In this document: piece after piece, positions 3,401-22,047 of the stretch
Layout: each line of letters begins with the position of its first letter
Position numbering within the stretch: the first letter of the stretch is position 1
Source: Candidatus Bathyarchaeota archaeon
GTDB lineage: Archaea > Thermoproteota > Bathyarchaeia > Bathyarchaeales > Bathycorpusculaceae
Assembly (NCBI GenBank): GCA_963827165.1
Contig: CAWGZR010000005.1
Location: forward strand, 96,001-160,000
Reading direction: 5' to 3'
Length of the DNA: 64,000 nt
Notes under the pieces: generated by a model
Told to the model about the DNA's origin: nothing
Databases searched by the model: none
The model's input: the letters and a program-made list of their open reading frames with translations, nothing else
Made by a program: the position numbers and the translations under genes

Positions 3401-4028
3401 CCAGATCGTCAAGGCGTTTCTGCACTTCGTCGATTCTTCCCATGGCAGTGCGGATGGAGATGTCTGCTGCACGGAGTTTCTCTTCCGCCTCAGCCTTCTC
3501 CGAGTCATATTGACCGATCCCGACGAGATCTTCGATTATTTTTCGACGTTCCAAAGAGTTGATTTCCGTCAGTCTTGTCAGGGTACCCTGTGGGATGATG
3601 TTTTGGCTCATGCTGCTAATAGAGCTCATCGAGAGGGTTTCTGTTATGTAAGTTCTTGACATTCTTCGTCCATTCAGTCGGTAAACGCTCTGACCATTCT
3701 TGAAAACCTCTCTAGAAATAGTCACAGTGGTGGTATCCACTGGCATTGTGCCGTCTGAATTATCAAATTGAAGGACAACCTTAGCCATCTTCGCTTTCTC
3801 TTGGCCAGCTTTATCTGAACCATGAAAAATCAGGTTTGAAGCGTTTTCAGCACGTAGCCTTCTGGTGCTTAATTCGCCAAGGGAGAAGAGTACGGCGTCC
3901 ATGATGTTGGATTTTCCGCTACCGTTCGGACCCGTAAGTGCCGTGAATCCTTTGTCTAGGGATATCTTGATAGTCTGCGGCCCAAAAGATTTGAAGCCTT
4001 TCAACTCGATTTTTTTTATATAGGGCAT
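477..4028 (-). CDS. smc: Chromosome segregation protein SMC
   Basis: 1183 aa; Walker A GPNGSGKSN, long coiled coils, hinge, signature SGGE, Walker B FYILDEVD. Confidence 0.97.
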   Translation of the reverse strand: MPYIKKIELKGFKSFGPQTIKISLDKGFTALTGPNGSGKSNIMDAVLFSLGELSTRRLRAENASNLIFHGSDKAGQEKAKMAKVVLQFDNSDGTMPVDTTTVTISREVFKNGQSVYRLNGRRMSRTYITETLSMSSISSMSQNIIPQGTLTRLTEINSLERRKIIEDLVGIGQYDSEKAEAEEKLRAADISIRTAMGRIDEVQKRLDDLERERNQLLRYNFIQAETKKFQAIKISSDITQVNVKLTEAKGQSEKVQARVDKLKEQRDVRRGKRHDIEGEWRKLSGENLEEGGSQVLRVQITIGDLKSKLTELNTKINSGQSSLESLKRVRENNVAQQENLRNEIRENRLKIRGFRSELVKLQTTLTQRASEHEVLAKQTAELWGGLDSNNEQIRAKQALIENHVKRMAFLRSEYSKEKAALRLSTGRIKSLVVRKERFQASLAEIEKSLSELEQVQKDQRIQLKNLEASIERKKTQKETVGKEIAEAEKIASSAKDAVIEFATQRDLAATIAAEEKALRSIEEMGNVGAINGIRGRLRNLIKIDRNYKKAIEAAATGWLDALVVANLDSAFTCTETLRRMKLGRIKIIPLQGAISLKNKSVPNREGVVGSLSSFMKYDSSYELAVNYVFGDTLVVSNDKVAFALSNEGWRAVTVNGDLYESGAFESGYYRAPIDFSTIIPSENALKSLDEAVNALQTHLTQRGVDITGLEEEVERSKIEMTRLQEGIATLDREIVRIKRGVKRTQFNIHHTEKYGGKLEREAASYKGRMEVYRNERNRMRREDEKLRGEIANLRLKTDVKNIQALEVEREKLGEEANKLKQNSGSMQTEISTYQSQFDRVLRNGYRNIKIQIVKVEQQQRKTEKEVADAALERDAAKKELDALEKTRVELSKAVFSSREESKKFTAQIDAIDAELRMLDTEYEVADRLRNQLQVSTETNQLRLQQLQSQLRQYGYEQPQETNQKQVEEAETTIRMMQFEIERIGAINQLALSHYTDQLSRYRELSVRLNELEREKQAIVQFMDEIEAKKRKVFMDAFEKINTSLKVYFSKLTGGGEATIKLENPEEPFSGGIDMIVQFPNKPSIVVSGASGGERSITAVAFIFSLKDFTPASFYILDEVDAHLDAYHTTKLAELLLEEAAKMQFIVITLRPEMVNKAQKVYGVYERNGVSNVVTAKFPPEVAS

Positions 4029-4303
4029 TCAGGCAGTATCCTCACGGCAAGCGATCTAGTATATTTTAACGTAAGACTATTAGGAGTATTGATATTAATT
4101 TCAATCTTATCTAATTTCGTCTTACATTCACCTTTACTTTTAACCATTAGTATTCAGAAAGCATATTAATCTAACTGAATACCCTACCTCGGAAATGCCC
4201 TAAACCTTGGCATATCAGAACTAAGAAATTTAGCTTAATTGTCCTTTTACTGAGTACGTCTTAACCTTGAATGTGCTCGGTAATAGCAGCGCACGCTTTT
4301 TGT

Positions 4304-4334
4304 GTCAAGAAATCTTTACAAGAACTCTTTTATC
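4304..4334 (+). promoter_or_regulatory. Conserved upstream element (GTCAA-N6-TTTAC plus TATA-like TTTTAT) of a secreted surface-protein gene
   Basis: 24/31 identical to 55436-55466; both lie 22-23 nt before the ATG of paralogous genes. Confidence 0.6.
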
Positions 4335-4357
4335 GCCAATCCTACCTAAAACTAATT

Positions 4358-5214
4358 ATGAGTAGAATCAGCACGAGTTTCTCATTGCTCTTTATTGTTC
4401 TCTTAGCCGTATCAAGTCTAATGATGGCTAAACCAGCATTTGCTCAAATACCTACGCCTTCGCCTTCACCTGTTCCTATTCCTATACCTACGCCCTCCGT
4501 TCCAACATTCACTGTACAGCTTGTCGGTCCTCCTTACACTGTGCCTACAACTTATTCGTTAAACCAAAGTTCAGGACAGATTGTTGCTCAAATCGGCTAC
4601 ACCGCTGAATATAATAATGTAGAAGTGACAATTAAAAATCAACCCTTTACTTCCTATGTTGATTCATCGGGAAATACCATTAACCTCTATTACAACATCC
4701 AAATAATGGACGACCAAACATCCGCTTGGACAGTCCTCTACAGTCCTGAAAGTTACCCAACACAGTCCATAGATTCCGATTATACCAACATATCAATCCC
4801 TGTGGCGACTGGTCAAAATGGGGGAATAACTATTCCTGTTGATACTCAAACCGATATCCAAGTTCAAGCAATTGATTGGATATATTACCGCAGAATTTAG
4901 TGGCATATACTATCTACTCCACCATATATTGGGGATTACTGGACCTATTCATTTGTTGGTCAAACAGGCAGTTGGAGCTGCAATGCAAACAGTAACCATA
5001 CCTGCGGATATTCCTTTAAGCCCTACCCCAACCCCAACATCCTCAACTTCAACGCTAACTCCAACTCCAATATCAACCTCTTCGTCTATTAGCAGCGCTT
5101 CTTACGCATCTCTTTTATTAATAGCTCTTGTTGTTATCACATTCTTGTTGGCTATCATTATTTTTCTTTCTAATTTATATGAGAAAACGAAAGCCCATTA
5201 ATTTAAGTGAGTGA
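4358..5214 (+). pseudogene. Secreted/membrane-anchored surface protein (paralog of 55489-56286), broken by several frameshifts
   Basis: Signal peptide and PTPSVPTFTV, IKNQPF, YYNIQ and DIQVQA motifs. The continuation LIGY / SFVGQTGSWS / QTVTIP / TM / YMRKRK is split over different frames at about 4870, 4890-4910, 4980 and 5170. Confidence 0.75.
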
Positions 5215-5251
5215 CGCCTAATTTCTTTTATTCTACGCTTTTCAGATTTAA

Positions 5252-5291
5252 GACTTATCTCTAAGTTTGATCAAACTTAAGAACATAAGTC
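5252..5291. repeat. Imperfect 40-bp palindrome upstream of the small ParB gene
   Basis: Perfect core TAAGTTTGATCAAACTTA (5262-5279) with outer arms GACTTAT/ATAAGTC. Confidence 0.8.
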
Positions 5292-5307
5292 GGCTAAAAG
5301 AAGGCTC

Positions 5308-5601
5308 ATGAAAGAACTGGATAAAGATAAAACAATCAGGTTTACCCTTGATTCTATTAAGTTATATGAAGATATTTTGCAAAAACAACAAGCAGATCCG
5401 TGTCACATGAAAAGAGTTAAAGCCCTTGCCAAAGACATATCCAAAAATGGTTTACAAAAACCAATAGAGGTTCTGCATCTCCAAAATGGGGAGTACAAAC
5501 TAATGGAAGGGTATCATCGTTACATGGCTTGTAAGTTACTTGGCTGGAAAGAGATTGAATGCTACGTTAAAGAATCAATCAAACTCTTTTATTATCAATG
5601 A
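5308..5601 (+). CDS. Stand-alone ParB/Srx N-terminal domain protein
   Basis: LAKDISKNGLQKPIEV...LMEGYHRYMACKLLG (GxxR motif). Confidence 0.85.
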   Translation: MKELDKDKTIRFTLDSIKLYEDILQKQQADPCHMKRVKALAKDISKNGLQKPIEVLHLQNGEYKLMEGYHRYMACKLLGWKEIECYVKESIKLFYYQ

Positions 5602-5649
5602 AAAATAGCAGTACTACCAGAACGAGATACTCGGTTAGTGATTAAAGAC

Positions 5650-5832
5650 TTAGGGATTTATTGAATGGTTTTTACCATAATTAGTTTTACCAAAAGTTAT
5701 GCGCCCATGCTTACCTTTAACAAGCTCTGTTATTACTTCCCGTAGTTCTTCTTTAGTTTTGTCTGGTAATGATTCATTGGCTAAATTGTAAGAGGTTTCT
5801 GTATCATCACTATACTTAACTGTTAATCCCAC
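5650..5832 (-). CDS. Small hypothetical protein
   Basis: 60-aa ORF co-oriented with and closely following the upstream element ORF. Confidence 0.5.
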   Translation of the reverse strand: MGLTVKYSDDTETSYNLANESLPDKTKEELREVITELVKGKHGRITFGKTNYGKNHSINP

Positions 5833-5844
5833 AATCTTTTTCTC

Positions 5845-6057
5845 TCATTTTTCATTTATCCATTCGAATTCACGATTTCTGTCGTTGCTTTCGTCTTTTG
5901 GAAGCCTAAAATCGCACATGGGACACGACCAAACAAAAGCACCATAGTAGCCAGCAAAAGGAACGAACGCTTTTTGCCACATTGACTGTCTATTGCTTTT
6001 TCTTATTGGCTTCACCATGTTTTTACATCGTGGGCATTTCACTAATGTTCTATTCAT
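5845..6057 (-). CDS. Small zinc-ribbon protein
   Basis: CPRC...CPMC; purine-rich RBS-like sequence upstream. Confidence 0.65.
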   Translation of the reverse strand: MNRTLVKCPRCKNMVKPIRKSNRQSMWQKAFVPFAGYYGAFVWSCPMCDFRLPKDESNDRNREFEWINEK

Positions 6058-6128
6058 TGTTCTACCGCTTTAGAATTAATTTTCACATTAAACTTATACG
6101 ATTTATGAATCTAAAATTCAGTTAATGC

Positions 6129-7602
6129 CTAACTCCTTGAAAATAGCTCTTTTTTATTTTGGTTAATGCGGTTGGTGATAACAAAATTTCTATTAGCAAT
6201 AGGACCAGTGTTAGAGTGCTTACCAAAATTACTCCATGTTTCACCACTGTTCATATCGTGGATAACTATCCTTGCCCCTGTTGCTGGTTTAATAGGAAAT
6301 AGCTGTTCATCCCAGAAGTTTAGCAATAAAAGAGAGTCTACAAGGTTGTCATAATGGGGATTGCTTTGTTTCTTATAGGACTTCATTTCTTGAATTAAGT
6401 CGTTATATTCCGCTGGTATCTCTAAACCCTGACTCTCTATCGTGTGGCTAAGTTGTTCTTGCATGACCTCTTTGTAATACCGTGAATTGACAGAGAAAAC
6501 TTTGCTCTTACCGTAAGCTTCCGATATGAGGTCAGACCACATGATAGGCAGACTATCAACCTTAACAAGCTGTACTTTATAGAGCTTTAGAAACTCTGCT
6601 ATTTCTGCAACAGCACCGTTAATCTCTTCAAATCCCCATGTCTTACGGAAGAGAACTTTAAGCTTATACTTACCGTTCTTCTCACCGATTGTTAAGGCTA
6701 ATTGGTCTCGGTCAGTGTGTCCAGTTCCACCACCGTCTACACCTGCCCATCTAATGCCACCTTCGCTTAGTACCTGTTCTCTAATAGCTTTGTTAATTTG
6801 CTCTGTGTCCCATAGTAACTTAATGCTGCTCTCGGATATTTCCCCGAGTACATCCCTTTTCCATTCATCTTCCGTCATTATCGTTTTTTTGTTGGTTAAT
6901 TCTTCTTGACTGTGCCAATCACAGTCTATTTAGCTCCACTTGAAAAGAGTAAAATTATATTTCTTAGGGTTTTTGAGTATCTCATTAAACTTAGAATACG
7001 GAGAGCTTGGAGTACCTAAGACTACCAGCTTAATCTTTTTACCGCTAAGATTCCCATAAGCAGTAGATAGTGTTTAAGAAGGCATTAATTCAGCCTCATC
7101 TAAGAAAAGAATGCTCGCACTTGCTCCACGAATACCCTTCTCGGAAGAGGATAATAGCTGCACCTTGCTACCGTTCTTTAAAGAGTAACCGTCTTTAGGG
7201 ATAATGTTGGCTACTCCTTCCCAACTTACATACTGCCTAAGCTCTGGGTTAGAGCTAAAGATGTCTGTTATGTGTTGGTAAACGTAGTTCTCTTTAGCAG
7301 AGACTAAACATACTTGAATCTTATTTTTGAGCGTTAAGTAAATAGCTGCTACTGCACAACATAACGACTTTGCCTGTCTGTCTGCCAGCTGAGATAAGAA
7401 CGTTAGTTAACTCTGGGTTTTCTAATCCCTGTAAGACCTCTATTTGTTTAGCGGTAGGAATTAGCTCTGTAATCTTAGTAAAAAATTCTGTTATGCTGAG
7501 ACTGAGAAGGGTATCACTTTCTATAGCTTTTGCTAAGTTTCCCTCTTTAGCCTTCTTTCGGTTTCTGTAATTCTTTTGTATAATTGCTCTGTCTAATGGC
7601 AA
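6129..7602 (-). pseudogene. Terminase large subunit (ATPase plus RNase H-like nuclease), disrupted
   Basis: Manual translation gives Walker A SAGRQTGK(S), GIRG...ILFLDEA (Walker B), coupling motif LGTP, and nuclease GVDGG...DNLVDS. There is one +1 frameshift at about 7369 and two in-frame TAA codons (about 7075 and 6931). Confidence 0.85.
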
Positions 7603-7638
7603 TAAAAATATCTCCTATTGGGGTTTATTTAAAAAAAC

Positions 7639-7782
7639 TTAGGATTCTGGTTTAGTTTTATCTGGAACGTTTAAAAGATTCCCGTCTGCATAGAGTTTCT
7701 TATAGAAATCGAGATTCTTTTTACTTAAGCCAATTTTGGTTAGAATCTCTTCCTTAACTTCTTCGGGAGTTTTTTTTGTCAT
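7639..7782 (-). CDS. 47-aa hypothetical protein (not in the ORF track)
   Basis: MTKKTPEEVKEEILTKIGLSKKNLDFYKKLYADGNLLNVPDKTKPES; fills the gap before terL. Confidence 0.5.
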   Translation of the reverse strand: MTKKTPEEVKEEILTKIGLSKKNLDFYKKLYADGNLLNVPDKTKPES

Positions 7783-8491
7783 GACTAAACAATCCTTTTC
7801 TCTTCTTGGAGTCTTTTTTAGGCTCTATGCTCTTTCGTTCTGCTCGCTCGTAAGATTCTACTACAGCTTTGTTTATCCAACCACCAGTAGTAGTATCTCT
7901 AACAAAACCGAACTCTTCCATCCCGTAATCTCTTGGATATTTCTTTTTAGCTTCTGGTTGCTTTGGTTTTTGTGCTGTAACTGGTTGCGTTACGTTAAAC
8001 AATTTTCTTATCATTGGGTCATGTATCGGTACAATCTTTAGTATGTAGATGTAATCAACTGTCTCGCCTTGAGTATCCGAGTTCATAGTTCCGACTTTTA
8101 CTTTAGCTGTTGAGTAGTCCTCTGACCATTCTATATCTGAGCTTTTGTATATGCTGCCTTCGTAGAAATCGAAGCGACCATTTCCATTATATCTTAGACT
8201 GTATCGAGCATTTCCATCACTAAGACTTATAGCAATCCCAACTGGCATTGTTGCTACTAAAAACTCGGTGCGTGGCATTAATTGATACTCTGCTATCAGG
8301 TCGTTTAGTCTTTTTATAGCTGTCTTCTGTGCCTCTACCGAGGGATAGATAACGCTCGGGTTTCCTACACTATTTTGGAGAGATTCTATTTCTTTTAGAA
8401 TCTCTCGTTTTTTCGTTTTTAATTGTTCATTATCCATTTTAATTACTTCCTTGTTCTCTTGCTTTTTCGTGATATGAGAACTGTAACACAT
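7754..8491 (-). CDS. Hypothetical protein (N-terminal coiled coil, beta-rich core)
   Basis: 245-aa ORF in the element operon; no motif recognised. Confidence 0.7.
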   Translation of the reverse strand: MCYSSHITKKQENKEVIKMDNEQLKTKKREILKEIESLQNSVGNPSVIYPSVEAQKTAIKRLNDLIAEYQLMPRTEFLVATMPVGIAISLSDGNARYSLRYNGNGRFDFYEGSIYKSSDIEWSEDYSTAKVKVGTMNSDTQGETVDYIYILKIVPIHDPMIRKLFNVTQPVTAQKPKQPEAKKKYPRDYGMEEFGFVRDTTTGGWINKAVVESYERAERKSIEPKKDSKKRKGLFSHDKKNSRRS

Positions 8492-8658
8492 TAACCCTCA
8501 GAGCCTACACGCACAGCAATCTCTTTGTTATGCTTGTTTAGATTCGTGGAGCTATCCCCTTTACAGCCTCTTAATTCTCTAAGTTGTGCTGGCGAAAGTG
8601 TTTGACCGACTACATGCCGTTTGTAGCTATACCCTCCATGATTTGAGTTAGATTTCAT
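8491..8658 (-). CDS. 55-aa hypothetical protein (not in the ORF track)
   Basis: MKSNSNHGGYSYKRHVVGQ...; ATGA overlap with the upstream ORF and TAATG overlap with the downstream ORF. Confidence 0.55.
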   Translation of the reverse strand: MKSNSNHGGYSYKRHVVGQTLSPAQLRELRGCKGDSSTNLNKHNKEIAVRVGSEG

Positions 8659-8867
8659 TGGTGACATAACCCCGAATCACACTGATTTTGAAAATGACGT
8701 TTCATATCCAATTCGCTCTTTGCTTTTGGTGCTGGTAAATCGAATTTAGTTAATAGAGCTATATCTCCCTCTAACTTTGCTATGTTCTTCATTCTTTCTC
8801 GTCTCACTGGACACGTAGAAGAACAACTTTTCTCTGGAAAAGCTCTTTTCTTAATTGTGTGAGTCAT
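8655..8867 (-). CDS. Small Cys-containing hypothetical protein
   Basis: 70 aa, CxxxC motifs, ATGA-coupled. Confidence 0.6.
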   Translation of the reverse strand: MTHTIKKRAFPEKSCSSTCPVRRERMKNIAKLEGDIALLTKFDLPAPKAKSELDMKRHFQNQCDSGLCHQ

Positions 8868-9106
8868 TGTTCCCTACTCCATTGTCTCATTTCTGGATAT
8901 ACTTCGTTTCGTACCCAGACTGGTCTGTTATTATTGGTTGTTTCAATATGCCATGAATAGGCTTCATTGATAGACTCTGCTTCCCTTTCAAATTCTAAAT
9001 AACAACCTATTGAACAGAAAAGGTCTGTCTCTAACTCTGGCTCGTAAAGTTTACCGCATTGAATACATTTCCGTTTAATTACGGCTAAAGAACCCAAGTT
9101 TGCCAT
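8864..9106 (-). CDS. Small treble-clef-type Zn-finger protein
   Basis: CIQC...FCSIGC; TAATG coupling. Confidence 0.65.
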   Translation of the reverse strand: MANLGSLAVIKRKCIQCGKLYEPELETDLFCSIGCYLEFEREAESINEAYSWHIETTNNNRPVWVRNEVYPEMRQWSREQ

Positions 9107-9303
9107 TAGTAAGACCAGCCTCCATAAACGCCCTTAGCATGGTGTTTGTGTAGTTTGTACTTCTGTTTACAGTCTGGGGAACACCAGAGATTATCTTTCA
9201 TGTACGTTTCAAATTCTGCTCCACAAGGACACTTACGAGTTATAATTTCATGAGAAAGATTAGCTAAGATTTCACTCACCATCTTAAAACACCAAACCAA
9301 CAA
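9106..9303 (-). CDS. Small treble-clef-type Zn-finger protein
   Basis: CPCG...WCSPDC; true start probably a few codons downstream (MVSEI). Confidence 0.6.
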   Translation of the reverse strand: MLVWCFKMVSEILANLSHEIITRKCPCGAEFETYMKDNLWCSPDCKQKYKLHKHHAKGVYGGWSY

Positions 9304-9544
9304 AGAACCTTTCTGGGTGTCTGTAGATTTCTTTCCTTAGCTGTCCTATTCCGAGTCTATGATAACATTCTCTAAGGGTAGCATTGTACTCTAATCTCTT
9401 CTCGGTTCTAAACTTCTTTGCTGACTTTCGACACTGTTCGCGCTCTACCTTATTCGCACATGAGAATGAACAATACTTTCGCCTACCCTTTGGGATAGGA
9501 TTATCACATTCTAAACAAGCAGCTTCTTTATTCACTCTAATCAC
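9284..9544 (-). CDS. Small treble-clef-type Zn-finger protein
   Basis: CLEC...RKYCSFSC. Confidence 0.65.
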   Translation of the reverse strand: MIRVNKEAACLECDNPIPKGRRKYCSFSCANKVEREQCRKSAKKFRTEKRLEYNATLRECYHRLGIGQLRKEIYRHPERFFVGLVF

Positions 9545-9726
9545 TAAACACTTGCTGCTCTCTTTGCTACAGTCTCAATCTTTGCTTTGTCTAAATCCCA
9601 ATTATCAAGTGTATCTTTGTCAGGGACTAAGTTATCTGGTAAATTAATATCAAACTCTACTTTGTGTATCTCCCTACATGTTGGGCATTGAACATTGAAC
9701 AGAAATTTATGTTTCTTAACACCCAT
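9544..9726 (-). CDS. Small protein with CPTC motif
   Basis: Start reassigned to ATG 9726 (MGVKK...), TAATG-coupled to the upstream micro-ORF. Confidence 0.6.
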   Translation of the reverse strand: MGVKKHKFLFNVQCPTCREIHKVEFDINLPDNLVPDKDTLDNWDLDKAKIETVAKRAASV

Positions 9727-9851
9727 TAAACAATATCCCCTAATAGTATTCTTCCACACTCACAACAGAGAAACCGTTGTTTCTTTCCCTGTCTGGTAAT
9801 CTGCTTACCAGCCTTAACGATGTGAAGACTGCCACATTGACATTTTTCCAA
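9726..9851 (-). CDS. 41-aa IS1 InsA-like zinc-ribbon protein, copy 2 (not in the ORF track)
   Basis: MEKCQCGSLHIVKAGKQITRQGKKQRFLCCECGRILLGDIV; TTG start, GGGGT RBS, TATA-like sequence upstream; clear paralog of 11692-11823. Confidence 0.8.
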   Translation of the reverse strand: MEKCQCGSLHIVKAGKQITRQGKKQRFLCCECGRILLGDIV

Positions 9852-9990
9852 GTTAGCTACCCCTAATCTATTGATTCATAGAAAGGTATATTAATACTTC
9901 ATGGTACTTCACTATACCCTAAACTTGATTTTTTTAGCTGTAGAAAACTTGGATTCACTATAAAAAGAGTATTGATTGTTCTTTCAGCTT

Positions 9991-10022
9991 CTTATTCTAC
10001 CGTGCTAAGACCGTACAATTAG
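9991..10022. repeat. 13-6-13 palindromic site A
   Basis: CTTATTCTACCGT-GCTAAG-ACCGTACAATTAG. Confidence 0.8.
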
Positions 10023-11668
10023 AGTTTCTTTCTTCCTTTAATGTACCAAGCGAAGCGTTCTAAGGTTTCAGTTTCTTTGAGAGATAATAGTTTATTTTCT
10101 TCTTCGCGGAATGGTTCCCAACCACTCCTAAACTTCCCATATTTTTTAAACAATAAGGGATGAATCTTATTGAAAGCTTTTTTTAGTGATAATTTCTTAT
10201 TTGAGAAGTCGGTAGTCAATTGTTGATGTATTTCTGGAAATATTGTTTTACTGGTTTCTATTAGGAGTACAGAATCGAGTTTTTCTATTGCTTTGTTTTC
10301 TTCTTCAAATGATGGTGGAAGAACCGTGTTTCTAACCATACTATTTTTGATTGGAATCTCTAATAGTTGAATTAATTGTAGTTTTAATGCTCGTATTCTT
10401 TTCTCTTCACTCTTCTGGATAAGCTCAATAGCTTCTTCTTTGATTGGGCTATGAACAAGAACATCTATTTTATGGCAGATATTAGCAAGTTTAGCTATTG
10501 GGTCTGTTGCATAATTCTCGGGGTTAATAGTATCTATTTTTTCTTGCTGGTCTGGATGGGAAACTTTGATATTTTTAATGTAATCTGTGATACGAGCAGT
10601 AGCTTCTTCTTCTGTTAGATATTCTATTGGATAGAATTTTTCTGTATTGTCATTGATGTCGTTTGATACATATTTTTCTGTACCAAATATTTTAGAATAA
10701 TCAGTATGAGCTAATAATAGAGGTTTCCAATCAGCTAAGTTATTTTCTACTAATTTCTTTCCAAGGTCTGTTAAGTAATATTTGTATTTGGCTTCATGCG
10801 ATTCAAAGCTATGTAGATTTTCTCTGCGTATTAAAAGGTTCAATACCAATGTGTTTATTGCAGTATTAAGAGAGTGACTAAAGTTACGAGCATAACCATC
10901 ATTTTTGGCTTTTACTTCGAGAAGTCCTATAACCTCAATGAAATCTGATTGTTTTAATCCTTCTTTGTTTGGTATAGTAAATATGTAAGCTGCTTCCTTT
11001 GTATCATGTTTATAATAATTTTCAAAATAGTTGATGTAAACCAAGAAGGCTTTTTGTTGTAGTGATAATCTATGTGATTTTTCGGCGAACTTTCTTGCTT
11101 TCTCCATCATTCTTTGTTCGGGTGAAATCTTGAATCCCATACGTTCAAATGGGTTTTTTTTAGACTCGGGTTTTACAGAAACATAAGAAGCATATTGTTT
11201 GTTTCCAACTAATTTCCCTTCATATTCGTAATGATGAACGTCTTGCTCGTTCATATCTAATAGGGCTGCTTTCTCCACTGCTGGTAATTCGCTATCGTTT
11301 ACAGAAACAGCAAACTCTTCTTCTGTAAGTGGAGTACGTTTGTGATTAGCAGCACGAGCTATCTTATGAGCTTCTTCTTTGCTTAACCCTTCGTAGATTT
11401 TAGCTTCTAAGGTCTGTTTCTCTGAGTATTCTTTAGTGCCTTTAGTTCTACAGAATCCATCCAGTAGTTGATATTTGTCTCCTGTCTTCAATAAAAGGAT
11501 AGGATAAAGCTGTCCTTCTGATTCGATGCTTTTGGCTAAGTTCTCTAATCTCTTAGGGTTGTAGTCTAATCTGCTTTGATATGTCTCGTCTTTAAGATCT
11601 ATCTTGTCTATTTGGAAATCTGGAACATAAAGAGGTTTTTTACTTGTTTCCTTTTGTGATGCTTTCAA
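10019..11668 (-). CDS. Large ParB N-terminal domain protein with probable winged-helix domain
   Basis: LAKSIESEGQLYPI...LLDGFCR...ANHKRTPL; later wing-like YYLTDLGKKLV. Confidence 0.85.
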   Translation of the reverse strand: MKASQKETSKKPLYVPDFQIDKIDLKDETYQSRLDYNPKRLENLAKSIESEGQLYPILLLKTGDKYQLLDGFCRTKGTKEYSEKQTLEAKIYEGLSKEEAHKIARAANHKRTPLTEEEFAVSVNDSELPAVEKAALLDMNEQDVHHYEYEGKLVGNKQYASYVSVKPESKKNPFERMGFKISPEQRMMEKARKFAEKSHRLSLQQKAFLVYINYFENYYKHDTKEAAYIFTIPNKEGLKQSDFIEVIGLLEVKAKNDGYARNFSHSLNTAINTLVLNLLIRRENLHSFESHEAKYKYYLTDLGKKLVENNLADWKPLLLAHTDYSKIFGTEKYVSNDINDNTEKFYPIEYLTEEEATARITDYIKNIKVSHPDQQEKIDTINPENYATDPIAKLANICHKIDVLVHSPIKEEAIELIQKSEEKRIRALKLQLIQLLEIPIKNSMVRNTVLPPSFEEENKAIEKLDSVLLIETSKTIFPEIHQQLTTDFSNKKLSLKKAFNKIHPLLFKKYGKFRSGWEPFREEENKLLSLKETETLERFAWYIKGRKKL

Positions 11669-11691
11669 AGTTGTTCTACCTCATAAGCCCT

Positions 11692-11823
11692 CTATTCTGT
11701 AGGGTTTAACACTCTGCCACAATCTTGGCATTGATACCTCTGAGTTTTTCCCTTTCTCGTAACCCTAAAACCCATCTTTACGATATGGGTACTTCCACAG
11801 ACGCATTTAGTTGGTTTACTCAC
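11692..11823 (-). CDS. 43-aa IS1 InsA-like zinc-ribbon protein, copy 1 (not in the ORF track)
   Basis: MSKPTKCVCGSTHIVKMGFRVTRKGKTQRYQCQDCGRVLNPTE; GTG start, TTTATAT box upstream. Confidence 0.8.
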   Translation of the reverse strand: MSKPTKCVCGSTHIVKMGFRVTRKGKTQRYQCQDCGRVLNPTE

Positions 11824-11944
11824 GGTCTTACTCTTCCCCAATATAGGTAGGTCTGTTTATAGATATAAAGATTATGGTTACTTCATATAGAATAGACCAT
11901 ACATCCTAAAGAAATATTTGTAGCCTCTCCCCATGACTGTAACT

Positions 11945-11976
11945 CTTATTCTACCGTGCTGTCACTGTATAATAAG
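11945..11976. repeat. 13-6-13 palindromic site B
   Basis: CTTATTCTACCGT-GCTGTC-ACTGTATAATAAG. Confidence 0.85.
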
Positions 11977-12064
11977 GAAATACTATTAGAGATAACAAAC
12001 CTTATTGTTTCATCTCATTAAGATGCAGATCAACCAATGCAAAAAGGGCAACGTTATTCGGTCT

Positions 12065-12097
12065 CTTAATGTAACCTTGCTGTCTATGTACAATAAG
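12065..12097. repeat. Degenerate palindromic site C
   Basis: CTTAATGTAACCTT-GCTGTC-TATGTACAATAAG (same spacer as B). Confidence 0.7.
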
Positions 12098-12521
12098 AGA
12101 ATGATAATAAGCCTATTCTTATTAGACCGTCACGGACTTTCTAATTACTAACTGTTATTTTTTTATTGATGATTTAGCGAGCCTGAAACACCTTACTTCT
12201 ACAGGGAAATAATAAGATAAGTTAAAAGTGTTTTCAATCTTAAGAGATAGGGAAACACCTTACGAATATTATTACTCGGCTAATTACTTGAGGTTGAGGT
12301 CGTATCCCGTTCTTAGTATCCTGAAGCCTTAATGAAGGTGAACGAGCCATTTAGCCACTTTAAACTCTTCCGAGTGACCTTACTTGTTCATTAGACTTTC
12401 TCGCCAATGCATTCTCTACACAATCAAGAAGTAATAGAGCATTGGCATACAAACAATTACTCCTTGATTGGTTAGATATTAACCCCTTTCTCGGCTCACA
12501 TAAAAAGCGTTATGGTTCAGT

Positions 12522-12553
12522 CTTAATGTACCGTGACAGCACAGTATAATAAG
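12522..12553. repeat. 13-6-13 palindromic site D, spacer inverted relative to B
   Basis: CTTAATGTACCGT-GACAGC-ACAGTATAATAAG; its reverse complement is 27/32 identical to site B. Confidence 0.85.
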
Positions 12554-12988
12554 AGTCGTAAGCAAAGGACAGAAGTAAGAGAAAAACAGATTTGTTATTT
12601 TTTATTTTTTATAGTATCCAGTATACTATACTGGATTAGCCGTTTCAAGCATTAATGAAGCATATTTCTGTTTTGTTTGATACTGGTAGGGTTACTCTGA
12701 GGTATTGAGATAAGCAGTATTGATATTGATTTGATGCATGGATGTAGACCCCTTGAAAAGACCATACATGGAGACCAGCGAGACCAGTCTCTTAATAGCG
12801 AGAACCTACCATCCAAGAAACTTAGCGTATAAGCTAAACCTTATTGAATATGAGTTAAAACTGTACTTAACTATTAGTATCCTTGCAAGCGAGTGAAGTC
12901 TGTAAGACGGAAGGAGCGCAGCTATAAGTACAGTTAGTTAAAGCATGGAAAATAATGATTGTTAGTAACAGTTTAGTTACTTGAAAGG

Positions 12989-14089
12989 TTACTCTTCTTT
13001 TAGTATGTCTTCTGCTTGTTTGTCTCTCTCTTCTTGATCGTGTATTATTTCTTCTAAGCTGTAGTCTTTAGCTAATAATCCTCTTTCCTTGAATGCAGTT
13101 AGTAAGGAATTGAAAGCGTATTCTAAGTTGTTGTACTTTTTCTCTAATTCACTAAGTTTCTTAACCTGTTCCTTGCTAATGCCAGAAGCAGCTTGAAAGT
13201 CTATGTTTAGATAATCATTGTAGACTGTAGGGTACTTCTCTTCTATCTCAACTTTGAGCGTCTGTAAGTAAGTTCTATCAGAGACTCCTATAGCCTTACC
13301 GAGAATGAACTTGATTTGAAACTCGTTAAAGCCACATCTGCTTAACCGAGACATCAGCCATTTTCTTATATTGTGGAATCTTAGACCACCAGTAGTTTTA
13401 AGACCGCTATTAACAGCTAACCGAGAAAGCATTTTCTGAATACCATCTGGGGTAAAAGGGAATAGTTTAGGGTTATCGTCTTTTCTTGTTTCAAGGTATT
13501 TAGATAACCATTCGATTGCAAGGGGATTAAAGACCGCTAATCTTGCTTCGCTTGTTTTGCTTCTGGTATCTTCAAAGAAAATAAACTTCTCATCATTTGC
13601 TTTAGCATGTTCAATTAATCGATATACTCTTTCTCTCTCTAATTCTAAGAAACTTGATATTTCCCATCCTAAGCTTGAAGCTGTGGCTATGATTGCTTTT
13701 TCTTGAGTGTCTCCTACTTGGAATAACTGCTTAAGGTCTCCATTAGTAAAAACGTGAGACTCGTTATCAGCTTCAACTTTCCCTAACATGCCTCTTCTAA
13801 ACTTCACGCTTTTATTTATTTGAGCTAAATAAGACCTAACGGCAATAATAACAGCTAAGACGCTGTTCTGTTTTTCACCCTTTGCTAAGGCTTCTCTTCT
13901 ATAATTCATGATTGCGCTCTTAATATCGTCTGGTTCCATTTCTCTAAGTTTCTCTTCACTTAATCCAGTAGCAGCAAAAAAGTTTTGAATTCTGTTCTTG
14001 TACATTCTTCGTGTACTGGGGTTTGAGAATTCGTTTAACCAGCCTTCAATACTTTTGTTTGATACTGGTTTATTCTTTGATTCGCTCAT
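12989..14089 (-). CDS. Tyrosine recombinase/integrase
   Basis: SAM-like N-terminus (STRRMYKNRIQNFF), RSKT, FHNIRK (HxxR), ILGK...RTY catalytic Tyr. Confidence 0.88.
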   Translation of the reverse strand: MSESKNKPVSNKSIEGWLNEFSNPSTRRMYKNRIQNFFAATGLSEEKLREMEPDDIKSAIMNYRREALAKGEKQNSVLAVIIAVRSYLAQINKSVKFRRGMLGKVEADNESHVFTNGDLKQLFQVGDTQEKAIIATASSLGWEISSFLELERERVYRLIEHAKANDEKFIFFEDTRSKTSEARLAVFNPLAIEWLSKYLETRKDDNPKLFPFTPDGIQKMLSRLAVNSGLKTTGGLRFHNIRKWLMSRLSRCGFNEFQIKFILGKAIGVSDRTYLQTLKVEIEEKYPTVYNDYLNIDFQAASGISKEQVKKLSELEKKYNNLEYAFNSLLTAFKERGLLAKDYSLEEIIHDQEERDKQAEDILKEE

Positions 14090-14478
14090 TCGCTAACACC
14101 TTATTTGACACTCTCAATAGATACAGTATGGTTACTTACTTTTAAAGGTTGTTAGATATCAATACTTGTAGTATGTGTATTTAACATCTCAGCAACATAC
14201 GTATAAAAGCTTATAGATATGCTACTGCTGTCAGGGAATAATTTCGAACCATGAATCGCTCAGCATTTGAGAAACATTTTGATTCTTTCTAAAAATGCTT
14301 GTAACGCTTTCATTGTTATCTCGTCACATTTTGTCCAGCCTGAAGTCCTACTAGCAGAATTAAATCATTTGACGTTAATTCGTACATTCGCACCGTTATG
14401 TCTTAGCAGTTTCTTTACCGTTAGAAGTTGAGTTGATACTAAAAAAAAGGAGATGGATTTTTTGTTTTGCTACTCTAT

Positions 14479-17181
14479 TTATGGTTTTCTTCTAAGCAGT
14501 ATCATTGCGAGTATGGCGATTCCCACGATTATTACAATTATTGTTGCAATTCCTATGTACATAACGGCGTTTTGCGTAGCTATACCTGTGAGTGGTGTTG
14601 CTGTTGGTGCAGATGTTGCTGCTGGTGAGGCGGCGTAGAATCCTGTGGAAGCAGTTGATCCATAGTATGATTGTGTGCCAGCAAAGGTTGCGTATACAGT
14701 GTAGTTACCTGCAATGTCAGGTTTCCACGTAAATGAGTAGTCGCCTAAGCTGTTTGTTGTCGTTGAGCCAATTGATCGGTAGTTGTTATTGGAGTCCAAT
14801 ACGTAGAAATTGACTGGGACTCCTGTTATGTTGCTCGGCATTGGCTGCTGCTCGTAAACTGCCTCCATAAACGGTGTCATGCTTGCATCAGAAACACATG
14901 GTAAGCCATTAGGAAAGTTGGCTGCGACTGCATTTTGCTGTGAGCCTGCGGAGATGTCGGTCACTGATCCTGTTACGGTTATTTGAGTGGAAGTTGTTAT
15001 GCCAACATCTGGTGCTGTAACGGTTGTTTTACTTGGTCCCATGCCGAAACCGTATATTTGGTTGTCATAGTCGTTTATCGTTGTCATTACACCGTCTGAA
15101 ATTGCTGGGGCACTCGTAATGTCGAAGCCCAATATGCTCCATGCCAGTTTTCCAGTGGTAGTGTTTATGGCAAGTTCGCTAGCTCCATGGAATAACGGTG
15201 GACTGTACATGTGACCTTCTGGAACGAATAGCATTCCATCAGCGAGTGATCCGCAGGTGAATGTCCAAAGAGGCCAGACTCCATAGGGTGTGTTAGACCC
15301 AGCAGGACCTGATAGTGTGTTAGTATTTGTCTGCCACGCGATCGCGCCTGTGGCCATGTTAATGGCCCATACGTCTCCTCCGAATCCCCACAAGTAAAGT
15401 ACTCCGTTGGCGAGAACTGCTTGATAGCCGCCGATGCTGTCGTAAGGATTGGCGCCGGCCAGACTTGTCGTCCATAGGCTGGTTCCTGTAGTCAAACTGT
15501 AACCAACAAGTGTTGACGTCTCCTCGTTAACTACAGCATAGGTCGAATCTCCGACTGCCGCGATAGATATCCTTGAAAACGGGGTTTCTGTCCTATTAGT
15601 TATCCATAGTTGTGCTCCGGTATTTGCGTTGTAGCCTGCCTCGATTTGGAAGCCAGATTGGAAGAATTGTTCTCCTGTGTATCCTGCATCTGTCATCAGT
15701 ATAATTCCACTATTGATTGATGAAATCGCTAGAGTTCCAGGCAAAGCCGACGCAGATGGTAAAGGAACGCCGTTAAGAGTCGTGGGTAGTGGCACAGTCC
15801 ACATTATCCCAGCTGAGAATTGAATGGTGGATCCCAGCACAGGTCTCCAAGACCAGTTTTGGTAGCCTGGAGCTTGGCCATTAGGGTACAGAATTGCTTG
15901 TGTCGAATTCCACATATTCAAGGTGGGTGCATTTGGATTAGTAGCGTTTACATAGTAGCCAATCAAGTCTCCACTTTGATCTTCAACCAGCGTTAATGGC
16001 GCAAGTCCAGATGCGGCAGGCGCATTGACAACAGTAAGTATAGGCTGTCCAGTCATGGCATCTAGCATTCCATATGTTGCGCCGGTGTTGGGGGGTATTG
16101 TTGGCTCTTGGACCCAAAGGTAAGCTAAGCTTCCGTACTGATTGGGTGAAACATAATCGTATATTTGACCGCATCTAAGTGTCGTTGTGTAAGGAACTGC
16201 TCCTGATGTTGTTAAGCCTCCCGAGGTTTCAAGCAAACCCTGTTGTAGTTGTGGCACGGTATAATTAAGACCCGTGTCGGTCCATAGTGTTTGTCCAGTT
16301 TGTAAGTTTACTGCGGTAATGCCTGCTGGGTCTTGGTTAGAGTTCGGGTACTCGGTGTAGTAGAGAATACCGCTTATTATTACAGGTGCGAATTTGGGTT
16401 CATACTGGGATGTCGAGTAGAAATTGCTCGTGTCGGATCCTCCGAATTCTCCGCCCACTAAGCCTCCGAAAGACTCAGGTTTTGTCCATAGGATGTGAGC
16501 GGATGTTGGCGCAGTAGTGTATGGATTATAGTTTCCGGTAATATTGTACTCGCCTGTGTTGGCAAATGTGGATGTACCTAAACCAAGCCAGTTCCCGCTA
16601 ATTGTATACCATTCGTTGTTCACTGATTCTATTGGACGACTCCAATAGTTTGTTGGAAGCGGAGTTTGGGGTATCATTGGTACTGGCCCTTGTTGCACTA
16701 CAAGAGTGTATGCTAAGCTGGTGCTTGGTTCATAATAATCTCCGATGAATGCCTTTGTTGCGGCAGTTGTTGTGGAAATAAGATTTGTTCCTGCCAACGT
16801 CTGTCCCGGAAAGCTCATCTGGAAAGTGTAGTTGCCAGCTTGACTAGGTGTATAATCTGTATGTGTTCCTCCAGTGTCGTCGGCTGTAAAGGTTCCAAGT
16901 TTTGTAGTGGTTCCATCAGGTAACTTTACCGTTACTGCCAATCCAGTCCATCGATCGCCATAAACGCCGCTGGCTGTTGGTGTCGGCAAACCGAGCCAAA
17001 AGCCAACGTTAACTGTTTGACCAACGCCGGCAGGGTTAGGATTTACTTCAATGTAAGCGTATGTTGGAATGTTCCATGGTGGTGAATGCGCATTTACGTT
17101 TGGTACTAAAATCATTGAACCCGTCATAGAAAGCACAAAGAATACACAAATTGTTATAGCTGCGATTTTGTTTTTCAACAT
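14479..17181 (-). CDS. Cell-surface PQQ-like beta-propeller repeat protein
   Basis: Signal peptide, repeated A(V/I)NxxTGxxxW motifs, Ig-like C-terminal domain, TM anchor plus RRKP. Confidence 0.9.
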   Translation of the reverse strand: MLKNKIAAITICVFFVLSMTGSMILVPNVNAHSPPWNIPTYAYIEVNPNPAGVGQTVNVGFWLGLPTPTASGVYGDRWTGLAVTVKLPDGTTTKLGTFTADDTGGTHTDYTPSQAGNYTFQMSFPGQTLAGTNLISTTTAATKAFIGDYYEPSTSLAYTLVVQQGPVPMIPQTPLPTNYWSRPIESVNNEWYTISGNWLGLGTSTFANTGEYNITGNYNPYTTAPTSAHILWTKPESFGGLVGGEFGGSDTSNFYSTSQYEPKFAPVIISGILYYTEYPNSNQDPAGITAVNLQTGQTLWTDTGLNYTVPQLQQGLLETSGGLTTSGAVPYTTTLRCGQIYDYVSPNQYGSLAYLWVQEPTIPPNTGATYGMLDAMTGQPILTVVNAPAASGLAPLTLVEDQSGDLIGYYVNATNPNAPTLNMWNSTQAILYPNGQAPGYQNWSWRPVLGSTIQFSAGIMWTVPLPTTLNGVPLPSASALPGTLAISSINSGIILMTDAGYTGEQFFQSGFQIEAGYNANTGAQLWITNRTETPFSRISIAAVGDSTYAVVNEETSTLVGYSLTTGTSLWTTSLAGANPYDSIGGYQAVLANGVLYLWGFGGDVWAINMATGAIAWQTNTNTLSGPAGSNTPYGVWPLWTFTCGSLADGMLFVPEGHMYSPPLFHGASELAINTTTGKLAWSILGFDITSAPAISDGVMTTINDYDNQIYGFGMGPSKTTVTAPDVGITTSTQITVTGSVTDISAGSQQNAVAANFPNGLPCVSDASMTPFMEAVYEQQPMPSNITGVPVNFYVLDSNNNYRSIGSTTTNSLGDYSFTWKPDIAGNYTVYATFAGTQSYYGSTASTGFYAASPAATSAPTATPLTGIATQNAVMYIGIATIIVIIVGIAILAMILLRRKP

Positions 17182-17548
17182 TTTTCTTTTTTCTCCTGAA
17201 TTTATTTATCCTGAGAAGAAATAAAATAAATATGGGCTTCTCAGGGCACGTTATTTTTCACAGATTTGGTATAAGTAATTTGCCTAATTTTTTTATCGTG
17301 ATTTAAAGCAAATAAGCGCTATTACTCAATTGATAAAGATACAAAATTAAATGAAAATAGTGGTTTTGCTTCAAAAAATAACCCTTCACAAAAAAATTCT
17401 CGCCGAAGAGGGAAAAAAAAAGGACGACACCCATGAAAGGAGAAAGCGGTCGACGATGGTACAGGGCATAGGCTCAGATTAAGCAAAGCATAAGGAATTA
17501 ATGTTTAGCATTACAGTTTAGAGTGTATGTGTTGTGGGGCGATTGAGT

Positions 17549-18988: not shown

Positions 18989-19230
18989 AACGCAAAACAG
19001 GCCATTGACTAACCCCTTGTGGTTTTCTGTTGACTTTTATTCACTTTTTTTGAATTTTTTTAACATATTATGACTTTTGTTCACGACAGTTAACTTTAGT
19101 AGACTTTTAGGGACGGATGCTGCAGAAGATTTGAGTCCTGCCGCAAAAAAGAAACCCAAAACACAAAGAAAAAAATCTTTCCCAATAAATGAGTTAGCCT
19201 CTGGATTCGCCCATGTAATTTTAGGATTGT

Positions 19231-19301
19231 CTATAATTGTCTGAAAGTGCATAATACTGTCTGGAAGCGTATAATATTGTATGAATGCATATAATATTGT
19301 C
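19231..19301. repeat. Tandem 20-bp repeat, about 3.5 copies
   Basis: ctataattgtctgaaagtgc / ataatactgtctggaagcgt / ataatattgtatgaatgcat / ataatattgtc. Confidence 0.8.
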
Positions 19302-19440
19302 TTTTTTAGACGCAACCTACAATGAATTCAATCCCCGAATCAAGAAAGCAGCTCAAAACTCAAACAACGAAATTTGCCGCGCCAAAAAATACGGAACCAC
19401 CTCTCACAAGTCAGCGGTCTTATTTTGTATTTTTTAGACT

Positions 19441-19490
19441 TTTTGAGATGTTTTGGGATGTTTCGAGATGTTTTAAGATGTTTTGGGAGA
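19441..19490. repeat. Tandem 10-bp repeat, 5 copies
   Basis: ttttgagatg ttttgggatg tttcgagatg ttttaagatg ttttgggaga. Confidence 0.85.
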
Positions 19491-19618
19491 CTAGTTGCAA
19501 TCAAATCAAGCACCAAACCGAAAAACCAACCCAAAACAAACCCAAAATTTTTTCGCGGAAAAATGAAGGGCTATCATTTATGCCAATAAAAACGTCACGG
19601 AAATGGGTTTCTGCCAAA

Positions 19619-20953: not shown

Positions 20954-20955
20954 CC

Positions 20956-21465: not shown

Positions 21466-21510
21466 TGCTTGTCTGTTTTCCTGCAAATAAGGAGTTTCGC
21501 TAATGCGTAC

Positions 21511-21789
21511 CTACCTAATCAACGTTATTTCAATTGTGCTCACGTTAGTCGTCGAGTTCCCTTCTTCCTGTGGAAGCATCTGATCCGTCCCGATTCCGAT
21601 ACATTTGATCTTTACCTCGGGAAGAAACCTGTGCCTAACAACCTCGGCAACATCTATTGCCCGGCTGATGGATCTCCCCCGTGCTTTGATGCTCACTTCT
21701 TTAGCGCCGCCATGGAAGAACGTGAGGCATGCAAGGACATAGTTCATTATCGGCTTTTTCCCAATTAAGACCGCGTTGACTTCGGGCAC
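21511..21789 (-). CDS. albA: DNA/RNA-binding protein Alba
   Basis: [36 protein letters not shown]. Confidence 0.96.
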
Positions 21790-22047
21790 GCCTTCGCTTC
21801 ACTCCTAGTTTACTTTTTAAGTGGCTTGAGTAAAGATTTCTTTGAAAATAAATAGGTTGTGGTGCAAGCTTTGAGTTATTGCTGAAAATTTGCAAATTAG
21901 ATTTTTCAAGCGCCTGTTTGCTTGTTTTTGATCACTGATTGATTCTTAATTTTTTCGAGGCTGTATCTTCCCTGATCAGTTTCAAGCATCAAATTCTTAA
22001 GTAACTTCACACTATTGTAAAGATTTAACTTAACAAACATCACATAA

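Follow-up and report, generated by a model that had tools for sequence, protein, structure and literature searches.

A 64,000-nucleotide stretch of the genome of a Candidatus Bathyarchaeota archaeon (contig CAWGZR010000005.1, positions 96,001 to 160,000; termed the window in the following) carries an integrated element of 10.1 kb, in which terL, the gene for the large terminase subunit, is by sequence comparison the sole virion-related gene. Terminases are hallmarks of head-tail viruses, and Bathyarchaeia are an abundant uncultured lineage of sediments and soils. As a bounded mobile element of 10.1 kb with part of a virion module (TerL only), it has the make-up by which satellites are recognised. 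We interpret it as a member of a satellite-like element family that would depend on helper viruses, the copy in the window having been disabled recently, and place the probability of this reading somewhat below one half, at about 45%. The window corresponds to positions 96001-160000 of contig C5 of genome G000, which comprises 3.13 Mb in 14 contigs and is 94.5% complete. Gene order and coordinates of open reading frames (ORFs) were read within the window, and 18 ORFs were scanned against Pfam and PHROGs.

The borders of the element were obtained from sites that lack it. In two genomes of the same genus (G072 and G035), detected with a 19-kb DNA query among 60 genomes of the genus, host sequence to the left of window position 4070 joins 14180 directly. 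A soil metagenome (run X1) was the sole public DNA run found, holding 9% of the sampled words, and was analysed by means of its Logan contigs. One of these, with a length of 4,605 nt, joins 4064 to 14180 and omits 10,115 bases, six letters fitting both sides, and shows no difference from the window over 3500-4064 and 14180-14800. Because this empty-site contig has identical flanks, one population exists with and without the insert, i.e. presence and absence of the element are polymorphic within one natural population. The run also holds a 312-nt contig from the element itself with one difference; the depth of the element-specific contig was 2.6, compared to 14.4 for the empty-site contig. The borders given by the initial annotation (5220-14250) were therefore wrong, and the element also includes a frameshifted gene for a secreted protein at its left end (Table 1). 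None of the eight joints shown for X1 contigs joined the element back onto itself; these contigs drop rare forms and leave much of the element uncovered. The sequencing-run search listed no RNA runs holding the window sequence.

Both junctions carry the sequence TTTAAC, embedded in a longer imperfect repeat (TATATTTTAAC / TGTATTTAAC), and the G+C content changes from ~47% in the flanks to ~36% inside the element. A 6-bp repeated core adjoining the integrase gene together with exact empty sites (TTTAAC here, TATACA in the sister element described below) is the pattern of an integrase-type insertion. The motif AGTATTGATAT, allowing at most one mismatch, matches four times in the 64-kb window, in all cases inside the element, where 0.9 matches were expected. 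Two of these matches are mutually inverted and lie 15-24 nt inside the element ends, making them candidate recombinase binding sites. No tRNA genes that could serve as integration targets were found in the window or in seven related loci.

A syntenic element with intact terL, of the kind for which the initial annotation had suggested a search, is present on contig CAWHDT010000005.1 (locus L019) of another Bathyarchaeota metagenome-assembled genome (G061). Its gene order is collinear with that of the window element, and it occupies positions 2344-12334 (~9,991 bp) between TATACA repeats, with G000 serving as the empty site, at a locus unrelated to that of the window element. Amino acid identities between the two elements are 65% for the integrase, 74% for zn49, 85% for zn80, 76% for o70, 72% for o245, 80% for o47, and 94% for TerL, which in L019 is an open frame of 491 aa (Pfam Terminase_6N, 28.4 bits; cut-off 22). 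The slot of ParB549, a 549-aa ParB-like protein of the window element, is taken in L019 (4784-7638) by a 465-aa protein with a sub-threshold GHKL-ATPase match and a 486-aa orphan. This module is flanked by the same repeated Zn-ribbon modules as ParB549, which suggests an exchangeable cargo slot. The distal end of L019 holds a Zn-ribbon ORF and a 166-aa secreted-type protein unrelated to the cargo protein of the window. With sizes of 10.1 and 10.0 kb, different loci, and swapped internal modules, the two elements are therefore independent integrations, and what moves is the compact form.

Selection was analysed by Nei-Gojobori estimates of nonsynonymous (dN) and synonymous (dS) divergence between window and L019 in eight comparisons. 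The values of dN and dS were 0.033 and 0.386 for the catalytic part of TerL, 0.161 and 0.392 for its N-terminal part, 0.184 and 0.55 for o245, 0.087 and 0.287 for zn80, 0.168 and 0.611 for o70, 0.119 and 0.529 for o47, and 0.135 and 0.692 for zn49; for the integrase dN was 0.31 and dS was saturated. The catalytic part of TerL has the lowest ratio of all (dN/dS 0.085). TerL is thus the most constrained gene of an element without capsid genes and is under strong purifying selection. The earlier impression of an organised rather than randomly deleted element holds in view of the collinear L019 at another site, its intact and selected TerL, and the polymorphic insertion.

Related TerL proteins are rare. 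A word-indexed search of 5.8 billion proteins with L019 TerL returned 13 relatives (34-100% identical), which are 475-508 aa long with one exception of 285 aa. In a metagenome scan, 12 close loci (55-73% identity) and one distant locus were found; of the 12 close loci, eight have a zn80-like ORF upstream and five an o70-like ORF downstream of TerL, and 11 have at least one of the two. A homologue of o245 was found in none of these 12, most of their contigs being only 2-4 kb long. All six full-length metagenome TerL genes tested are open, and motifs which we take to be Walker A (GRQxGK), Walker B (DE), and several nuclease Asp residues do not vary among 12 family members. Within the genus, the family occurs in three of 120 genomes: G000 (broken), G061 (intact), and the 80%-complete G104, which retains a C-terminal TerL fragment with o70 and an integrase piece. 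No match at E<=1e-40 was obtained in a class-wide sample of 400 other genomes, and genome-contig scans returned only the L019 record. So far, the family has been encountered only in one Bathyarchaeia genus and in related metagenome contigs. A prediction of the complex of TerL with o70 scored 0.00, which bears neither for nor against an interaction. At a further locus (L056), TerL is split (285 + 151 aa) and adjoins host metabolic genes. Contig C10 of G000 contains a low-G+C island with few long ORFs at ~197,000-212,000 (L005, ~5,000-20,000), in which family remnants occur without TerL (zn55, o70, o66, an o47 fragment, and a C-terminal integrase fragment).

The scans of the 18 window ORFs against Pfam and PHROGs yielded no match to capsid, portal, or tail families, which bears out the earlier statement that capsid and portal are not recognisable, and nine L019 ORFs gave no Pfam match to major capsid protein (MCP), portal, or tail families. 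Only the integrase, ParB549, and terL exceed 250 aa in the window element, so that no unassigned ORF of this size exists. The closest viral TerL proteins in IMG/VR (L028-L035) are 29-37% identical over nearly the full length. In these viruses the gene order is MCP, a conserved Cas4-like protein of ~230 aa, and TerL; the MCP of L028, which also has a tyrosine integrase, matches a PHROG major head protein (5.5e-13), and L034 and L035 have weak portal matches downstream of TerL. The element carries no capsid genes on either side of terL. A scan of viral contigs with the read-through TerL of the window found no relative, and among GenBank phages TerL matches only the ATPase halves of T4-like gp17 proteins (22-27%). 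Two plasmids, NZ_CP030359.1 (14.9 kb, Salinibacter ruber) and NZ_CP025962.1 (15.9 kb, Rhodococcus qingshengii), contain 'terminase family protein' genes with 24-26% identity to TerL.

The most probable mode of life, helper dependence, can be outlined as follows. The element would remain integrated until its integrase excises it at the 6-bp core. When a head-tail virus infects the cell or is induced, TerL of the element would load element DNA into procapsids of this helper. The family keeps a working TerL with packaging ATPase and nuclease domains together with small co-travelling Zn-binding proteins, and the slot holding either ParB-like or GHKL-ATPase proteins and the distal gene for a secreted protein would represent exchangeable cargo. 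The window copy was disabled recently by the terL frameshift and two nonsense codons, its cargo gene also being frameshifted. Excision, use of helper capsids, the identity of the helper, and the functions assigned to the non-coding region and the small proteins are presumed in this scheme. A more specific version, in which the family would be the first satellite of archaeal head-tail viruses with its own TerL as sole virion gene, ~10-kb genomes would be packaged into helper procapsids, and a basic N-terminal extension of TerL or zn80/o70 would replace TerS, is put forward tentatively and appears to us less likely than not.

Possible helpers are present in the hosts. A complete-looking head-tail provirus (L063) is located on the same contig (G000:C5, ~13,200-30,000), ~70 kb from the element. 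It encodes a TerL of 387 aa (PHROG 3.1e-37), a portal of 490 aa (3.3e-18), scaffold, connector, tape measure, a 1,312-aa fibre, and a 299-aa capsid-like protein with a sub-threshold capsid match. Portals 94-96% identical to that of L063 are present in G072 (two copies) and G061 (split), and portal homologues in four of five genomes checked (G000, G061, G072, and G035, not the 80%-complete G104). Such a provirus in the host is a possible helper, and helpers are thus plausible. Head-tail proviruses of the same genus and L028-L035 share the TerL superfamily with the element and differ from it in having MCP, portal-like, and tail genes. Contig C13 of G000 encodes a second TerL at ~38,200-41,200 (L065, 10240-13196; 416 aa, PHROG 7.7e-43). 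It is preceded by a 188-aa ParB-like/methyltransferase-like protein and a phrog_11143 protein. The ORFs scanned after it gave no portal or capsid match, and it may be another terminase-only remnant.

Several points weigh against a satellite-like, helper-dependent family. Packaging into helper capsids is something we infer, and neither packaging nor induction nor a circular form was observed. Co-occurrence with helpers is uninformative because portal proviruses are also present in G072 and G035, which lack the element. TerL of the family shares only ~25% identity with TerL of the resident proviruses and there are no shared DNA or protein matches with L063, which leaves the element without a link to any particular helper. 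The IMG/VR viral contigs yielded no close family member, the best match having 37% identity, and neither TerS nor a replication initiator was recognised in the window element or L019. The premise of the initial annotation that capsid genes follow terL fails for the nearest viruses, in which the MCP precedes TerL. Only two complete elements are known. The window locus can at most be counted as a disabled family member, and its terL lesions are seen in one assembly only, without any read or contig of at least 99% identity being shown across them. TerL is intact in only one of five chromosomal copies or remnants (L019); it is broken in the window, truncated in G104, split in L056, and absent from G000:C10, a pattern which also fits decaying proviruses. 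Finally, a metagenome locus with a 55% identical TerL (L053/L052; L053 3089-9522) has ORFs of 1,002 and 1,113 aa directly upstream of TerL. A Peptidase_S74 domain, a tail-fibre chaperone, forms the end of the 1,113-aa ORF, which also resembles the 1,312-aa fibre of the G000 provirus (36% identity over 233 aa); after the large ORFs and TerL come o70, an Mrr-like ORF, and an integrase. Some members of the TerL clade may thus be full viruses with capsid genes beyond the L053 contig. From the initial proposal of either a satellite or a heavily deleted provirus, the compact and organised element stands, as seen from L019 and from selection; the window copy itself turned out to be disabled, and its packaging is a matter of conjecture.

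The main rival to the satellite reading is a relic lineage, i.e. descent from a head-tail provirus whose structural genes were lost and which is still mobile, or was so until recently, through its integrase, with terL as a functionless leftover whose conservation reflects a short time span or recombination with full viruses. This is the published reading of NitKor-E1, the sole similar archaeal case ('likely is a relic' in the accessible text of PMC6563490), and it is in line with the frequent decay of terL listed above and with the tail-fibre-like genes that L053 ties to the TerL clade. A functionless gene is hard to reconcile with a dN/dS of 0.085 at a dS of 0.39 between two compact elements that are collinear from end to end. 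Likewise, open frames in six of six full-length metagenome TerL genes, invariant catalytic motifs, and near-equal lengths (10,115 versus ~9,991 bp) at different loci despite swapped modules argue against a relic, which we regard as unlikely.

Clearly less probable is an exapted terminase, in which a non-viral integrative element would use TerL for something other than its own packaging, for example to interfere with the packaging of infecting viruses as a defence, or to process DNA as a nuclease or translocase. No gene is more constrained than TerL, yet no TerS, portal, or capsid is encoded beside it, and the variable slot with ParB-like or GHKL-ATPase proteins recalls the cargo and defence hotspots described for satellites in the accessible part of PMC9122126. 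PADLOC, applied to six proteins, weakly matched parB97 to PD-Lambda-5_A (best 3.6e-5) and gave no match for TerL, ParB549, o245, or two L019 module proteins. Both ATPase and nuclease motifs are kept as in packaging enzymes, and no precedent for such an exaptation was found in the literature searched.

The window copy of terL is broken by one frameshift and two nonsense codons. The initial annotation had treated terL as an open gene and missed this damage as well as that of the cargo gene, which counts against its reading of this copy. One frame (7602-7321) encodes the N-terminal part, including Walker A (GRQTGK), and the next frame the remainder, which ends at a TAG stop (6129-6131). Compared to L019, one extra base is present at ~7362-7372 next to a short A run, and the two in-frame TAA codons (7074-7076 and 6930-6932) are both GAA in L019 (GAA>TAA, G>T). 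The two sequences differ by 151 mismatches in 1,473 aligned bases, and of 66 positions invariant in the family, two are altered in the window TerL, one of them by D>N in the conserved HYDD motif. PHROG TerL matches were obtained for the 249-aa ORF (1.7e-4) and for the read-through protein with X at each stop (3.7e-8), the latter scoring 17.6 bits in Pfam Terminase_6N (cut-off 22). Recoding of TAA was considered and rejected: L019 has GAA at both sites, a frameshift would also be required, and the neighbouring 47-aa ORF ends in TAA. As TerL is under strong constraint, the lesions must be recent. X1 contigs include a ~90-93% identical relative of the terL/o245 region without the extra base at 7369.

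The lesions could alternatively be long-read consensus errors in a copy that is actually intact. The terL frameshift is a single-base excess beside a short A run, the cargo gene has several frame changes in an AT-rich stretch, none of the contigs shown spans the lesions at 99% identity or more, and the low depth of the element in X1 (2.6 versus 14.4 for the empty site) would fit a poorly polished minority form. The decay of terL is nevertheless taken as real because two of its three lesions are G>T substitutions making TAA and not indels, neighbouring genes of the same AT-rich element (integrase, ParB549, and o245) are open, and host genes show normal long ORFs, 82% of the window sequence being in ORFs of at least 100 aa. 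The deviations at two of 66 invariant residues, including the D>N change, point in the same direction, and an assembly artefact is thus quite improbable.

The 245-aa ORF o245, for which a capsid protein or TerS had been considered, was analysed by structure prediction. A profile search among 1.84 billion representatives found 25 relatives, and none of 14 tested matched a Pfam family. AlphaFold2 with an alignment of 24 sequences gave a model with a mean pLDDT of 81.6 and a pTM of 0.42, which replaced an earlier model from seven sequences (pLDDT 64.8, no match). The predicted fold consists of a helical hairpin, a small beta domain, and a long C-terminal helix; Foldseek found no match at E<=1e-3 in PDB and BFVD (TM-scores <=0.24), and a search of the ESM Atlas with o224 gave no usable match. 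According to this predicted structure, o245 is not an HK97-fold capsid protein and matches no TerS or portal fold either. Neither of the observations that would have spoken against the satellite proposal, portal or MCP genes in homologous elements or a capsid-like o245, was made in L019 or in the model. Homology of o245 to the Cas4-like protein preceding TerL in L028-L035 was also considered and rejected, as BLASTP showed no similarity (best E 2.4). A complete virus of unknown kind with capsid and portal hidden among small unrecognised ORFs would agree with most ORFs lacking a family and with o245 being an orphan of unmatched fold, and is hardly credible given that no ORF besides integrase, ParB549, and terL exceeds 250 aa and that the o245 model lacks HK97 features. 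To our knowledge, packaging of the TerL type (Duplodnaviria) is found only where an HK97-fold capsid protein and a portal several hundred residues long are also present.

Classical phage-inducible chromosomal islands (PICIs) carry TerS or redirecting factors and are not known to carry TerL. A module with TerL only is intermediate between PICIs and capsid-forming PICIs (cfPICIs). The element has only integrase and TerL from the core set of both: a PICI-type regulator and a primase-replicase were not found, and primase, capsid, and portal families were absent from the 18 ORFs scanned against Pfam and PHROGs. In their accessible parts, the reports on PICIs, including Staphylococcus aureus pathogenicity islands (SaPIs), and on cfPICIs (PMC10085698; 10.1101/2022.09.08.507074) describe similarly small (~10-15 kb) islands with an integrase and a partial packaging module, which spread in helper-phage particles. 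The cfPICIs differ in that they carry terL plus capsid, portal, and head-tail connector genes (accessible text of PMC10085698). The hosts of PICIs and cfPICIs are bacteria, and no homology of these islands to the element beyond the generic TerL fold was shown.

Among archaeal elements, NitKor-E1 of Ca. Nitrosopumilus koreensis AR1 is the most similar, being integrated, with a tyrosine integrase and a terminase as sole head-tail hallmark and without capsid or portal. Krupovic et al. 2019 described it, in the text accessible, as having no viral genes besides TerS and TerL, as 'enigmatic', and as a probable relic (PMC6563490). The two are likened by description, not by sequence, and NitKor-E1 differs in its recognisable TerS beside TerL and its occurrence in a single genome (same source, accessible text), whereas in the family described here no TerS was recognised, a collinear sister exists elsewhere, TerL is under selection, and an empty site is found at population level. 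The elements pSSVx, pSSVi, SRCEs, and the putative Asgard satellite NMV2S are also small and archaeal, with an incomplete morphogenetic module and a proposed use of helper virions; within the accessible sections of these reports, none is described with TerL (10.1101/2025.02.15.638363; 10.64898/2026.08.12.739948). pSSVx, pSSVi, and SRCEs differ further in being associated with spindle-shaped viruses, plasmid-derived, and equipped with MCP and/or AAA+ ATPase, and according to the accessible text of Zhou et al. only pSSVx and pSSVi had previously been described as archaeal satellites, to which SRCEs of spindle-shaped viruses were added (10.1101/2025.02.15.638363). A survey of Bathyarchaeia viruses leaves satellites unmentioned, and no description of a TerL-only satellite was found in the literature searched, supplementary tables being outside its coverage.

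While the earlier capsid-less archaeal terminase element was set aside as a probable relic (PMC6563490, accessible text), a small family is present here, and purifying selection on TerL, two collinear ~10-kb members at different sites, and the polymorphic insertion speak for more than a relic. Should the family prove helper-dependent, satellites of tailed viruses would be known from Archaea as well, together with a mode of packaging, own motor and borrowed capsid, of which we found no description among bacterial satellites. Virus-virus parasitism in Bathyarchaeia would then become accessible through the L019 TerL, the end motifs, and the candidate helper provirus. For annotation, terL on its own in an archaeal island does not necessarily signal a decayed provirus; the window copy itself, however, is decaying.

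The features of the element are listed in Table 1. The genes named by the initial annotation (integrase, Zn-ribbons, two ParB-like proteins, micro-ORFs, terL, and small ORFs) were all found again in the ORF, Pfam, and PHROG scans.

Table 1. Positions of the element and its features in the 64-kb window.
Feature	Position	Strand	Remarks
attL core	4065-4070	.	left TTTAAC 6-bp direct repeat; host sequence up to 4070; from G072/G035 empty sites
Integrated element	4071-14179	.	10,109 bp, 10,115 bp counting one repeat copy; from G072/G035 empty sites and X1 contig
AGTATTGATAT motif, left end	4085-4095	+	opposite orientation to the copy at 14156-14166; candidate binding site of the integrase
Cargo gene (pseudogene)	4271-5201	+	secreted, C-terminally anchored protein; split into ORFs 4271-4900 and 4839-5201
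parB97	5308-5601	+	97 aa; ParB N-terminal (Srx-like) domain only; convergent with main operon
60-aa ORF	5650-5832	-	no family (ORF list, Pfam, PHROGs)
70-aa ORF	5845-6057	-	double CxxC Zn-ribbon; downstream of terL; Zn-ribbon Pfam matches all sub-threshold
terL pseudogene	6129-7602	-	1 frameshift, 2 in-frame stops; read-through 94% identical to L019 TerL
o47	7639-7782	-	47 aa; directly upstream of terL; 80% identical in L019
o245	7754-8491	-	245 aa; likely gene 7754-8437, ~227 aa, as homologues begin at Met19
Micro-ORF run	8491-9860	-	overlapping ORFs (9759 down to 8491) after second Zn-ribbon: 71, 86, 65, 80 (zn80), 70 (o70), 58 aa
Second Zn-ribbon paralogue	~9744-9860	-	56% identical to first; heads micro-ORF run
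33-nt repeated module	9990-10022	.	upstream of second Zn-ribbon gene
ParB549	10019-11668	-	549 aa; divergent N-terminal ParB/Srx domain, ~420-aa C-terminal part without family
zn49	11692-11841	-	49-aa Zn-ribbon; head of ParB operon; 74% identical to L019 counterpart
Non-coding region	11842-12988	.	1,147 bp without ORFs; 76% column identity with L019
35-nt inverted repeat	11942-11976 and 12522-12556		in non-coding region
GTAAGGTGTTTC copies	12185-12196 and 12252-12263		in non-coding region
AGTATTGATAT copy	12716		in non-coding region
Integrase	12989-14089	-	366 aa; tyrosine-recombinase type; adjoins right end; PHROG integrase 4e-10
AGTATTGATAT motif, right end	14156-14166	-	just inside right end
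attR core	14174-14179	.	right TTTAAC 6-bp direct repeat; host from 14180 onward; from junction comparison

In Pfam, the integrase scored 20.7 bits (window) and 26.9 bits (L019) against Phage_integrase (cut-off 27.1), and no PDB sequence match was found at E<=0.1. Only parB97 among the 18 window ORFs exceeds a curated Pfam cut-off (PF02195, 32.9 bits versus 26.3; PHROG ParB-like 1.8e-13). ParB549 remains marginally below it (26.0 bits; PHROG ParB-like 4.3e-12), its residues 30-125 match a PDB ParB at 5e-5, and only two homologues were found; an ESM Atlas search with residues 130-549 gave no usable match. At the position of the arginine patch, ParB549 reads DGFCR in the alignment versus GERRxR in the PDB ParB chain. 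With regard to a ParABS system, no ParA-like ORF was found among the 18 scanned, only the N-terminal domain of ParB549 matches, and no parS was identified. o70 has four invariant Cys. The cargo gene matches no Pfam family and, as seen by three-frame translation, is frameshifted relative to an intact 303-aa homologue in G035 (L066). A 27-nt stretch just downstream of it (5236-5262) has an identical copy in intergenic DNA of G000:C11 (~5,450-5,480).

The non-coding region had been described as structured. It is conserved in L019; the RNA-fold z-scores of eight 150-nt windows were mixed (-2.41, 0.06, -1.81, -2.14, 1.07, 1.11, -0.23, and 0.13) and Rfam gave no match at E<=1 over 3900-14400, so that the description stands only in part. 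Strong palindromes occur on the - strand at 12400-12640, with a perfect hairpin of 9-bp stem at ~12600-12620 and a hairpin of ~16-bp stem at ~12420-12480. A module of 33-35 nt precedes both Zn-ribbon genes, with a third, inverted copy within the non-coding region, which is a candidate origin, regulatory, or packaging-site region. Scans for bacterial-type promoters and terminators did not rise above shuffled sequence (30 and 9 hits versus 28.0 and 6.1), these bacterial models being unsuited to archaea.

The element is neighboured by an SMC gene on the left (477-4028, - strand) and a gene for a 900-aa surface protein on the right (14479-17181, - strand). The block of the latter (14229-17485) is variable, being missing between the same flanks in G072 and replaced by ~11.4 kb of different DNA in G035, and has paralogues on contigs C4, C9, and C10 of G000. 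The region upstream of the SMC gene looks like an insertion hotspot.

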